Shown: piece after piece, positions 15,001 through 18,000 of the stretch
How the letters are laid out: the number at the start of each line of letters is the position of its first letter
Position numbering within the stretch: position 1 is the first letter of the stretch
Virus record (IMG/VR): IMGVR_UViG_3300029745_000181
Reading direction: 5' to 3' (one strand)
Origin: a virus
Taxonomy: Duplodnaviria; Heunggongvirae; Uroviricota; Caudoviricetes
Length of the DNA stretch: 27,172 nucleotides
Position numbers: made by a program

Positions 15001-18000
15001 CATCATACCTGGCGCAGCTATGCGTTCTTCCTGCTGGACGTAATGCCGGAAAGAACGGCTGAACACTACCGCAACAAGATAGCAGTTTACCTGCGCTGGT
15101 ATCAGAACCGGGGATTCCCGGATGATATCCCGGATGAACAGGAAAATGATCTGGGCTGCCGGGATGTTCCCTCCTGGCGACGTATTTGTAAGACTCTCAT
15201 AAAGAATGATTTCTGGTGCCGAACGCTCTCCTTCAGCCCCAACAAACCCCGGCACTATGAACGTTACCTGCAGCGTATGAATGAAAGGAGGAAGGAATGG
15301 GGAATTCTGTGACACCAGAGGTGGAGGTGCTGAGCAAGATGATTCGACAGTACTTCAGTCAGGAACAATCTGAAGAGAAAACCATACAGGCCCTGAACCA
15401 TCTCCGCTGCGTACTCCATGAGATCAGCCCCTTTGCTCAAGAACCAGTGGACTGTGTGCTGTGGGTAAAAGCGGATGAAATTGTCGCTAACGATTATAAT
15501 CCCAATGTCATGGCCCCAAGCGAAAAAAAATTACTGAAACAATCTCTGGAAAAAGACGGTTTTACTCAACCAATTGTTGTTTCGGAAGAAACAAGCCATT
15601 ACCTGGTGGTGGATGGTTTTCATAGGCAGTTACTAGGTAGAAGAACAGTTACTGGAAAACGCCTGAAAGGCTGGCTACCAGTAACCTGTATTAATCCAGA
15701 CCGAAAGGGACAAACCTCACGTATTGCCGCGACTATCCGACATAACAGAGCCAGGGGGAAACACCAGATAACCTCAATGTCTGATATTGTCAGAGATCTT
15801 TCACGTCTTGGCTGGACTGATGAACGTATCGGAACAGAACTGGGGATGGACCAGGATGAAGTTCTGAGGTTAAAGCAGATTAGCGGGCTAACGGAGTTAT
15901 TTCAGCAGGCAGATTTCAGCCCTGCATGGACTGTTACATAAAGTTAGGTTAGGCCTGTGGAGCCGGGGAATCGGAATTAAACATCTTCCCTCCCCGGTAA
16001 ATACAAATAAGGGCTGAACATCATCCCGACTACCTCAGATCACTTAATAATATATCAAGATTATTTTGCGCATAAATGCTATTCGCCATTACTGTTGCTG
16101 CTTCTGGCGACTTTCCAAGAGCAATAAATATATCCTTAAGGCTGATTGGAATTGATGAACCATGCGGATCGCGCCACTCACCGCAAATTCTGTGAGTTTC
16201 ATCACAAAGCCTGAACGCATCCCAACCTCCATATTGACCAAAAATTATGTCCATTGACTCTATTTCTGCGGGCGATAACTCCCCCAGCTCATCAACAGAA
16301 GAAAATGTACGCCACATTTCAACCTTATGATCCGCTACATCAGATATCCATGATTCCCACGGACTGTACTCGTTTTCGCTTCCATCCTTAACCAAAGAAT
16401 ATGTCTGCGATAAAACGGGTCCTTTGTTCATAGAGAAATAATGATCACCACTAATGGGAAAACCATACAACTCCATTGCTTTGCGGTCAGAGAGATACAT
16501 CAGCTTAATGAAACGCATAGATCCGCCATGTTTTTTCAGCAAATACGCTGCCATTTACGCAACTTTTTCTTCATTAAACATAAATCGGCTCTCTGTCTCA
16601 CATGAAATACTCTTTCTGACTATATGTTAATAGCTCCGGTTATTACAGGTTAATGTGTGTTTATTTCTTAATCAGCCCCGCACTTCCGTACGGGGCCATT
16701 TCTGTTAATCCACTCCCACTTTTTTGTTGTACTCGCGGTTAAAGCGATCCACGGCAACCTTCATATCCCGCTCTACCGATTTCACCATCGCCGCCTGCTG
16801 CGCCAGACTGAGAGAACTGTCGGCATAAATGGCATCGCGCTGTTTGCGCAAATCCTTCAGTCTCTTCCGGGTATCCTGCATAAGCCCGTTCATCAACAAT
16901 TTTCCGTTGTTCTCGTCAATGAACGCCGTTCTTTCTGCACCGGTCAGACTCTTCAGCTCTGCGTGATACTGCGCAACCTCTGTCATCCGGTCGTACATCT
17001 TCTGCTGGTCTGCATACGGCATCACCTCACCCGAAATTTTCCCCAGGAAGGGCACCTGCTGTTCCGGTATATCAATACCATGCAGCGATTTCACCGCCGC
17101 ATCCGTGGTTTTGGAAATGAAGCGCCCTGTCCCTCCGGAGATATAGTCAATCCAGAATTTCAGCGATTCCGGTGTGATATCCACCGCGCCGGGACGATAC
17201 TGGCTGCCACCTGAGAACGCATTCAGCCAGGATGCAAACGCCTTGTACGCTTCTGGCGTTGAACGTCTTCCCAGCTGGCTGTCAGGTTTTGGTGTACCAA
17301 ACGGCATGTTCTCCTGGTAAATCTGCGCCCCCATGAAGTTTTCGTTCATGGCAAGATTCGCAAACGGACGCAGAATTGTCGGTGCTGCATTTTTCAGCAA
17401 TGCCCCGGACAGCGTTTCCGACGTCTCACTGCCAATCGGGCTGAATGCCCCCAGGATACCACCGACAACATTACCGGCAGCACGGGACGCCGTCAGGTCG
17501 CCCGCTGCCACACCTTCAGAGGTATGCCCGAGCAGGAAGAAAACGTTGTACCCGTAAGGCAGAGGAATACTCCAGTACTCTCCGGCCCTGCCCCCGAACA
17601 TCGATTTCATAATGACGAGGTTACGCTCTTTCACATGATACGGCACCTTGTCGTACCAGTTAACCCCGTCATCATCCTCACCCGCCACACTGCGGTTAAG
17701 CGAGCCAAGCAGATAACCCGCTCCCACAGCTGCAAGCGCGATTTTCTGCGGTACATTGAGATTCTTCCAGCGAAGGCGCTCCAGTAACGGCCCGTCGCCA
17801 TTAAGATGTCCGAGCGTTCTCACCAGGTTTGCGGTCCCCTGAATGCTGGCGTTGGCAAACATATACAGCGAGTTCATCAGCGCTCCCTGCTCACCACGAC
17901 GGTTAAAGTTCACCGTCATGTTTTTGGCAAGAGATGCCGCCTGCTGGCGTGACAAACCGGCATCACGGGCGTGTTTATAGGCAGAAAGACGCAGAGCGTT

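Follow-up and report, generated by a model that had tools for sequence, protein, structure and literature searches.

The stretch of DNA considered here, 27,172 nucleotides (nt) of the Caudoviricetes virus record IMGVR_UViG_3300029745_000181 (hereafter the window), carries a small gene for a Panacea domain protein whose start codon abuts the stop of an 8-codon open reading frame (ORF). Comparison with related loci suggests that this locus is the decayed remnant of a phage-borne panA-panT type II toxin–antitoxin cassette, which lost its toxin gene to a deletion and whose antitoxin gene was broken by a nonsense mutation, a reading to which we assign a probability of roughly 0.85. With less assurance, we consider it likely that the remaining product of 174 amino acids (aa) is non-functional. 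The gene belongs, in damaged form, to a family already known and characterized by experiment, PanA of the T6 PanAT group; degraded toxin–antitoxin modules and orphan antitoxins are commonplace. The value of the analysis is mainly corrective. A first-pass annotation, made from the sequence alone, had proposed leader-peptide control and an exotic partner; this false lead is removed, and the arrangement becomes a nonsense mutation in an antitoxin gene without its toxin.

The assignment to the Panacea proteins (DUF4065, PF13274) held when the profile search proposed with it was run. Pfam PF13274 SocA_Panacea matches the 174-aa protein with an expect value (E) of 2.4e-19 and 70.7 bits (gathering score 25.7), the match spanning protein residues 16-127 and profile positions 2-112 of 113. 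RefSeq labels the product 'Panacea domain-containing protein' (WP_032270877.1, from a strain identical across the 821-nt locus query), while NCBIfam and PADLOC leave the protein unmatched and PHROGs gave only families of 'unknown function'. The 8-codon ORF is likewise present as described: it reads ATG TTT AAT GAA GAA AAA GTT GCG TAA (16581..16555), and its stop touches the ATG at 16554. Both ORFs share one reading frame, a detail on which the case turns and which the first-pass annotation passed over.

Alignments with relatives reveal what the short ORF is. The 174-aa protein aligns along its whole length with PanA homologues of ~185 aa, and a joined query of 183 residues retrieved ~220 homologues, mostly of 184-186 aa, with 99-100% query coverage including the first nine residues. 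The N-terminus of the family reads MFxEEKVAQMAAYLLxKRGG; among the 46 homologues in which residue conservation was scored, A8 never varies and M1, F2, K6 and Q9 reach at least 90% conservation. A family scan limited to one genome per species yielded 71 loci, nearly all of which align to the query from residue 1 or 2, and five more found through protein look-ups bring the set to 76.

At the DNA level, the 27-nt short ORF and the start of the intact gene in Escherichia coli relatives (O104:H4 L002, cM8a L006, L086 and L087) are separated by a single C-to-T difference, and codons 1-8 of the continuous panA in L002, L006 and L086 are identical to the short ORF. More distant E. coli and Salmonella members likewise have ATG...CAA ATG in frame. 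Since the 27 nt equal the beginning of the intact gene in relatives save for this one change, the abutting short ORF is, by comparison, not a chance feature. Codon 9 is CAA in L002, L006, L007, L008, L086 and L087; the window and all three full-length E. coli copies read (L001, L003, L004) have TAA instead, and the TAA split is confined to one near-clonal E. coli allele group. The comparison thus points to a gene of 186 codons whose ninth codon has become a stop through one C-to-T change, the codon after it encoding the conserved Met10. The gene shows 42-70% identity to members outside the E. coli locus and 97% DNA identity to the intact E. coli allele. Set against the N-terminus of the PanA subfamily, it has full-length homology, but its frame is broken at codon 9 and three residues of an invariant motif are gone. 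On this evidence the window gene is a damaged member of the PanA subfamily that is paired with T6 (MazF-like) toxins.

The intact state of the cassette survives at the orthologous locus of other E. coli. Contigs of this type (L086, L088, L089), retrieved by looking up the E. coli PanT protein (P0152), show the order giant LPD5/LPD1/MuF_C/LPD38 gene (2791 aa), panA (186 aa), panT (133 aa), convergent ibrB, ibrA, antA and ynfF. Here panA begins at the ATG of the supposed upstream ORF and runs on as one continuous gene, and panT follows after 5 nt. The intact locus is like the window in its flanks, namely the giant LPD38 gene on one side and convergent ibrB and ibrA on the other, and unlike it in having CAA at codon 9, two copies of the repeat that encodes Lys-Leu-Met and a full 133-codon panT. 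Between the giant-gene stop and panT codon 6, a stretch that takes in panA and the 5-nt spacer, the window and L086 share ~95% DNA identity (97% within panA). In blastn comparison the homology to the L086 cassette ends at window position 16007, which is reference position 769 and panT codon 6, and the distant comparison with L007 gives the same end. The window is without panT codons 7-133 and a further ~350 nt behind them, both of which L086 holds at this place; the additional ~350 nt include the giant-gene 3' end in a second copy.

No toxin-like gene was found adjoining panA or elsewhere in the window; tblastn and the family profile hidden Markov model (HMM), run on the six-frame translation, gave a best E of ~1. 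The first-pass annotation had already seen that no toxin-sized ORF lies beside the gene, and this extends to the whole window. Because a 6-codon panT stub remains and PanT-like coding potential is missing throughout the window, the toxin gene appears to have been deleted from it. Within the distance of up to 100 nt that Kurata et al. use for an adjacent toxin, the window offers an 18-nt stub only, whereas L086 and 72 of the 76 loci contain a toxin gene. Among the three roles that had been offered for the gene, orphan antitoxin is the right one, in the sense of a Panacea gene without a toxin partner in the window.

A further observation on L086 concerns the second copy just mentioned. L086 6542-6689 corresponds to window 16675-16821, so that after panAT there stands a ~150-nt repetition, 96.6% identical, of the giant-gene 3' end with its strong hairpin. 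The panAT cassette is thus bracketed by direct repeats, by way of which it could plausibly have been inserted or excised.

The lost partner is conserved across the family. In 72 of the 76 PanA loci an ORF of 121-152 aa (typically ~134 aa) lies directly downstream in the same orientation, in most cases overlapping the panA stop by 4 nt, and all 72 match a single HMM with E between 1e-57 and 1e-9. An AlphaFold2 model of this protein, PanT (m3ab8bfe6e624), reached a predicted local distance difference test score (pLDDT) of 93.6, and structural comparison places the model in the MazF/Kid/CcdB-type fold. Searches of PanT against Pfam (including PemK/MazF), NCBIfam, PADLOC and PDB sequences gave no sequence-level match. 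Judged from the model, the lost partner had a MazF/Kid fold, and it resembles MazF/PemK/Kid toxins in predicted fold but not at the sequence level.

Apart from the nonsense mutation, panA carries a second lesion. The window allele is without one of two tandem AAGCTGATG copies, which amounts to a 3-codon in-frame deletion in a K-L-M-K-L motif; K26, L27, K29 and L30 of this motif are invariant in the same 46 homologues. The repeat looks slippage-prone, since its copy number varies by strain: one in the window, two in L086 and L002, three in L006. An AlphaFold2 model of an intact PanA member (m1952a049375b, pLDDT 93.1) has residues 4-18 in helix alpha1 and residues 24-42 in helix alpha2. According to this model, the stop at codon 9 would leave any restart product without the N-terminal half of alpha1, and the loss of Lys-Leu-Met would take nearly one turn from the start of alpha2. 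Stand-alone Panacea domains neutralize through a three-dimensional surface that belongs to the fold (Ernits et al. 2023, PMC10440598). As the lesions fall in confidently predicted helices and Panacea neutralization depends on the fold, it is reasonable to infer that the N-terminal stop and the deletion together impair PanA function. Neither the PanA profile against PDB sequences nor a Foldseek search of the PanA model against the PDB gave a meaningful match; the Panacea fold is apparently without an experimental structure in the PDB copy searched.

Taken together, these data are best explained by the following course of events. The cassette would have been a moron behind the giant gene of 933W/Shiga toxin (Stx)-type lambdoid prophages, composed in its intact state of a 186-aa stand-alone PanA and, 5 nt on, a 133-aa PanT with a MazF/Kid fold (T6). 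In the lineage of the window, panT would then have been deleted save for its first 6 codons. In panA, codon 9 would have changed from CAA (Gln) to TAA, leaving an 8-codon stub and a 174-codon remainder from Met10, and one copy of the 9-nt tandem repeat would have been lost, removing Lys-Leu-Met from the invariant motif. The toxin was presumably lost first and the antitoxin later, because prior loss of the antitoxin would be lethal and loss of the toxin frees the antitoxin from selection. Termination–reinitiation is an established form of translational coupling in bacteria. As UAA and AUG are adjacent, some 174-aa protein is probable: ribosomes ending at the UAA would probably restart at the AUG and make some truncated protein in which half of alpha1 and part of alpha2 are gone. 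Such a truncated PanA would probably have little or no function.

The relatives of the window show how far this erosion has gone. In O104:H4 and cM8a prophages panA codons 1-40 are kept, and a deletion extends from codon 41 to past panT; O157:H7-type prophages have only patchy fragments of panA and panT, and 933W/VT2-Sakai-type Stx phages only short pieces of both. The window-type allele recurs in the metagenomic loci L013 and L014 with a further deletion of 78 nt (26 codons), one of them also frameshifted. Two complete genomes carry insertion sequences (IS), IS1 inside panA in one and IS3 in place of the 5' half of panA in the other. The search for at least 80% of panT was negative in all 5426 complete E. 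coli genomes (0/5426), and fragments are present in 100. An intact toxin gene is missing from every E. coli derivative of the locus that was examined. These observations fit a panAT cassette that is dispensable and eroding at this locus. The first-pass annotation had named a neutral deletion with no toxic partner as the outcome that would speak against its proposal; the natural knock-outs by IS1, IS3, internal deletions and frameshifts are in effect just that.

As a separate observation, classical Stx phages (933W, VT2-Sakai, Min27 and others) hold their panA and panT fragments behind the giant gene, in a gap without annotation. Phages in which a cassette of this family is intact are SKA5, Lys8385Vzw, Yersinia YeP1-3, Klebsiella ST13-OXA48phi12.5 and Pseudomonas Sirocco. 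The slot behind the 933W/Stx-type giant gene, with its independently eroded panAT cassettes and rare intact ones, offers a natural series for the study of toxin–antitoxin decay.

Several points weigh against a decayed and non-functional cassette. The 174-codon frame is still open in 18 complete E. coli genomes and in the propagated phage PhiR5_2, and the 99-100% identity of these open alleles may mean that the lesions are only recent. The window and the intact L086 allele differ by 7 synonymous and 8 non-synonymous substitutions, a comparison that is compatible with past purifying selection and gives no date for its loss. The sequence of toxin loss followed by antitoxin loss is one that we infer, restart at UAA-AUG may yield some protein whose inactivity is deduced from its lesions, and the toxicity of E. 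coli PanT itself would follow by analogy from experiments on the Pseudomonas homologue pair.

Some of these points also speak for the leading alternative, which we regard as unlikely. Here the 174-aa product, made by UAA-AUG reinitiation, would be a functional orphan antitoxin that is kept to neutralize a T6 PanT encoded elsewhere, such as on rival prophages or in PanAT defence systems of the host; its role would be anti-addiction or anti-defence. Other families do include orphan antitoxins that act against addiction, for example chromosomal ccd. The frame that stays open in the 18 genomes and in an active phage speaks for this reading, as do the adjacent stop and start, and targets exist: intact T6-type panAT circulates in E. 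coli, Salmonella, Yersinia, Klebsiella and their phages. On the other side stand the two lesions at invariant positions and in confidently modelled helices of a fold-dependent domain, and the further breakage of the same allele by the 26-codon deletion, frameshifts, IS1 and IS3. Two alleles within the TAA lineage differ by 4 non-synonymous and 1 synonymous substitutions, small numbers that look unconstrained, as relaxed selection would give. Moreover, PanAs are reported to be naturally specific for their cognate toxin (PMC8832971). A narrower version of the idea, still less probable, is that active Stx-type phages such as PhiR5_2 keep a clipped, toxin-less PanA as a free-standing anti-PanT factor against T6 PanAT systems in the host or in rival prophages, with expression set at a low, coupled level by the UAA-AUG junction.

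Decay also explains the arrangement better than an evolved leader peptide, in which translation of the 8-codon ORF would control that of the Panacea gene. Such control is mechanistically plausible, given translational coupling and a stop fused to a start, and a weak hairpin (-9.8 kcal/mol) can be drawn across the junction. This hairpin is no better than those of shuffled sequences (z = -1.27), and no Rfam leader was found. The 8 codons are instead the N-terminus of the same gene, in frame with it and homologous to the coding N-terminus of relatives, and they are cut off by a stop one C-to-T change away from a Gln codon that is at least 90% conserved. Apart from L058 and L084, whose starts are uncertain, a separate mini-ORF is absent from the 76 related loci. 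We therefore hold this control device, which the first-pass annotation had favoured, to be very improbable, and the comparative data have in effect already refuted it.

The least credible proposal, that the protein confers immunity to a toxic domain within the giant polyvalent protein or is a third component of ibrAB, draws on physical adjacency, which is confined to this prophage family, and founders on the conserved neighbour, the ~134-aa MazF-fold PanT found at 72 of 76 loci including this locus in other E. coli, on the lack of any IbrA, IbrB or giant-protein homologue within ~3 kb (tblastn) at the 76 family loci in other taxa, on family members that occur in P2-like and other lambdoid settings lacking these genes, on the many prophages that retain the giant gene with panA destroyed, and on the truncation of the giant gene in the window itself.

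The decayed cassette can be related to a characterized system through the work of Kurata et al. (2022, PNAS, PMC8832971), who studied Pseudomonas moraviensis PanA (WP_083354365.1) and PanT (WP_083201923.1), a pair with a toxin of cluster T6. This PanT is toxic in E. coli, is neutralized by and co-purifies with PanA, and specifically inhibits protein synthesis; the cluster is labelled as EndoA/PemK/MazF-family RNase by HHpred (PMC8832971). The authors judged the NCBI start of P. moraviensis PanA to be truncated and prepended 'MIFSEQKVAQ' (PMC8832971); PanA of the Pseudomonas loci L039 and L041 has this same N-terminus. In Dataset S1 of Kurata et al., Halomonas stevensii S18214 stands in T6 with antitoxin–toxin order and -4 spacing (PMC8832971); this strain is our locus L036, where -4 spacing was measured as well. 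The N-terminus of L039 and L041 and the T6 listing of L036 together place the family of the window gene in T6.

The P. moraviensis pair resembles the family in its stand-alone Panacea protein of ~185 aa from the same PanA subfamily, with the N-terminus M(I)FSEQKVAQ-MAAYF, and in its partner of ~132-134 aa with a predicted EndoA/PemK/MazF fold, encoded in antitoxin-then-toxin order by overlapping or abutting genes. The window protein is ~41-42% identical to PanA of L039 and L041. The window copy differs in retaining only a 6-codon toxin stub, in its stop at codon 9 and in the 3-residue deletion from the invariant motif; its setting, an E. coli Stx-type prophage, is different too, the Pseudomonas pair being listed as 'NotPhage'. 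By homology to this pair, the toxin of intact E. coli PanAT would be expected to arrest growth and to be neutralized by direct binding of its antitoxin. In the literature, we found no paper that describes this E. coli prophage cassette.

Two other systems are instructive for comparison. SocAB of Caulobacter crescentus contains the founding Panacea/DUF4065 antitoxin, the source of the name SocA_Panacea, and has the Panacea domain in common with the window gene. The toxin SocB blocks the replication clamp, and SocA acts on it as a ClpXP adaptor. The toxin family is a different one, T10 in PMC8832971 as opposed to T6 here. With MazEF and Kid/PemK, in turn, PanAT would share the MazF/Kid/CcdB fold of the modelled toxin, and, like MazF, the validated T6 homologue is an inhibitor of translation. 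PanAT is unlike them in that its antitoxin is a Panacea domain and not MazE or Kis, in that PanT has no sequence match to Pfam PemK/MazF or to the PDB, and in ~45 extra C-terminal helical residues of PanT.

The features of the locus are collected in Table 1.

Table 1. The panA remnant and its neighbourhood, with positions in the window, strand and basis of each assignment.
Feature	Position	Strand	Details and basis
Remaining panA frame	16030..16554	-	174 codons, ancestral internal Met10 to stop; ORF list and translation
"8-codon uORF" (upstream ORF) MFNEEKVA, codons 1-8 of ancestral 186-codon panA	16558..16581	-	In frame with the ATG at 16554
Premature stop TAA in place of Gln9 (CAA)	16555..16557	-	Comparison with other loci
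Lone copy of the 9-nt unit AAGCTGATG (Lys-Leu-Met)	16498..16506	-	Alignments with two-copy intact alleles
Stub of panT, first 6 codons ATG ATG TTC AGC CCT TAT	16007..16024	-	Alignment against L086
Spacer remaining after the deletion, panT stub to convergent ibrB stop	15942..16006	-	Sequence; imperfect hairpin 15963-15997
Intergenic region, giant-gene stop to ancestral panA start	16582..16704	-	Strong hairpin 16674-16697; purine-rich AGAGAG 16589-16594
5'-truncated polyvalent giant gene (context)	16705..21600	-	Pfam: part of LPD5, then LPD1, MuF_C, LPD38
ibrA (context)	14086..15312	+	RefSeq name; Pfam PAPS_reduct and DUF3440
ibrB (context)	15297..15941	+	RefSeq name; convergent with panA

The extent first given to the gene, 16030-16704, stands in its part 16030-16554, which is the ORF; the part 16555-16704 is mostly intergenic hairpin and spacer. 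The region 16582..16704 is conserved in L086 and L002. Its hairpin at 16674-16697 has a folding energy of -20.5 kcal/mol (z = -5.1 against shuffles), and the AGAGAG stretch, read by eye from the sequence, sits 7 nt ahead of the ancestral panA ATG. Between the panT stub and ibrB (15942..16006), the fold energy is no better than that of shuffled sequence (z = -0.23). A scan of the panA region revealed no sigma-70-like promoter, and its single terminator-like match falls inside the coding junction. An Rfam scan of 15850-16850 at E<=1 gave no family at its gathering score; two sub-threshold matches (E 0.24-0.33) are attributed to chance.

The comparison also bears on how such genes are annotated. 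The RefSeq 174-aa product is what is left at the tail end of a broken gene, and its entry could carry a flag to that effect. Among the PanA proteins in the databases, several are ~9 residues too short although their upstream in-frame start is intact: P0004 (L007 4974-5534) and P0010 (L008 3916-4476) are given as 177 aa and begin with MAAYLL. Both were considered as a second natural split and rejected, as the DNA has the upstream in-frame ATG...CAA; they are mis-started annotations with a true length of 186 aa. Two further loci were discarded as natural tests of whether the N-terminus is dispensable. In L058, from a long-read metagenome-assembled genome, one base is inserted where Gln9 meets Met10 (~2985-3015), possibly a sequencing error, and the toxin that follows is intact; L084 is a distant member with an uncertain start and without a partner.

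Among the flanking genes, the IbrB-like protein (15297-15941) has no Pfam match at E<=0.001 despite its RefSeq label 'IbrB-like domain-containing protein'. The same-strand upstream neighbour of panA is the LPD38-type large ORF that ends at 16705. The first-pass annotation was right to place a giant ORF there; what the window holds is only the 3' ~58% (1631 codons) of a gene of 2791-2792 aa that is intact in L001 and L086. Homology to the intact L001 gene ends at window position 21673. Near this junction, upstream of the giant gene, lie genes for a Lom/Ail outer-membrane protein (22124-22858) and a tail-tip fibre (23864-25132). Because the giant-gene homology stops at 21673 with these genes upstream, the prophage of the window is, judged by its gene content, a deleted or recombined mosaic.

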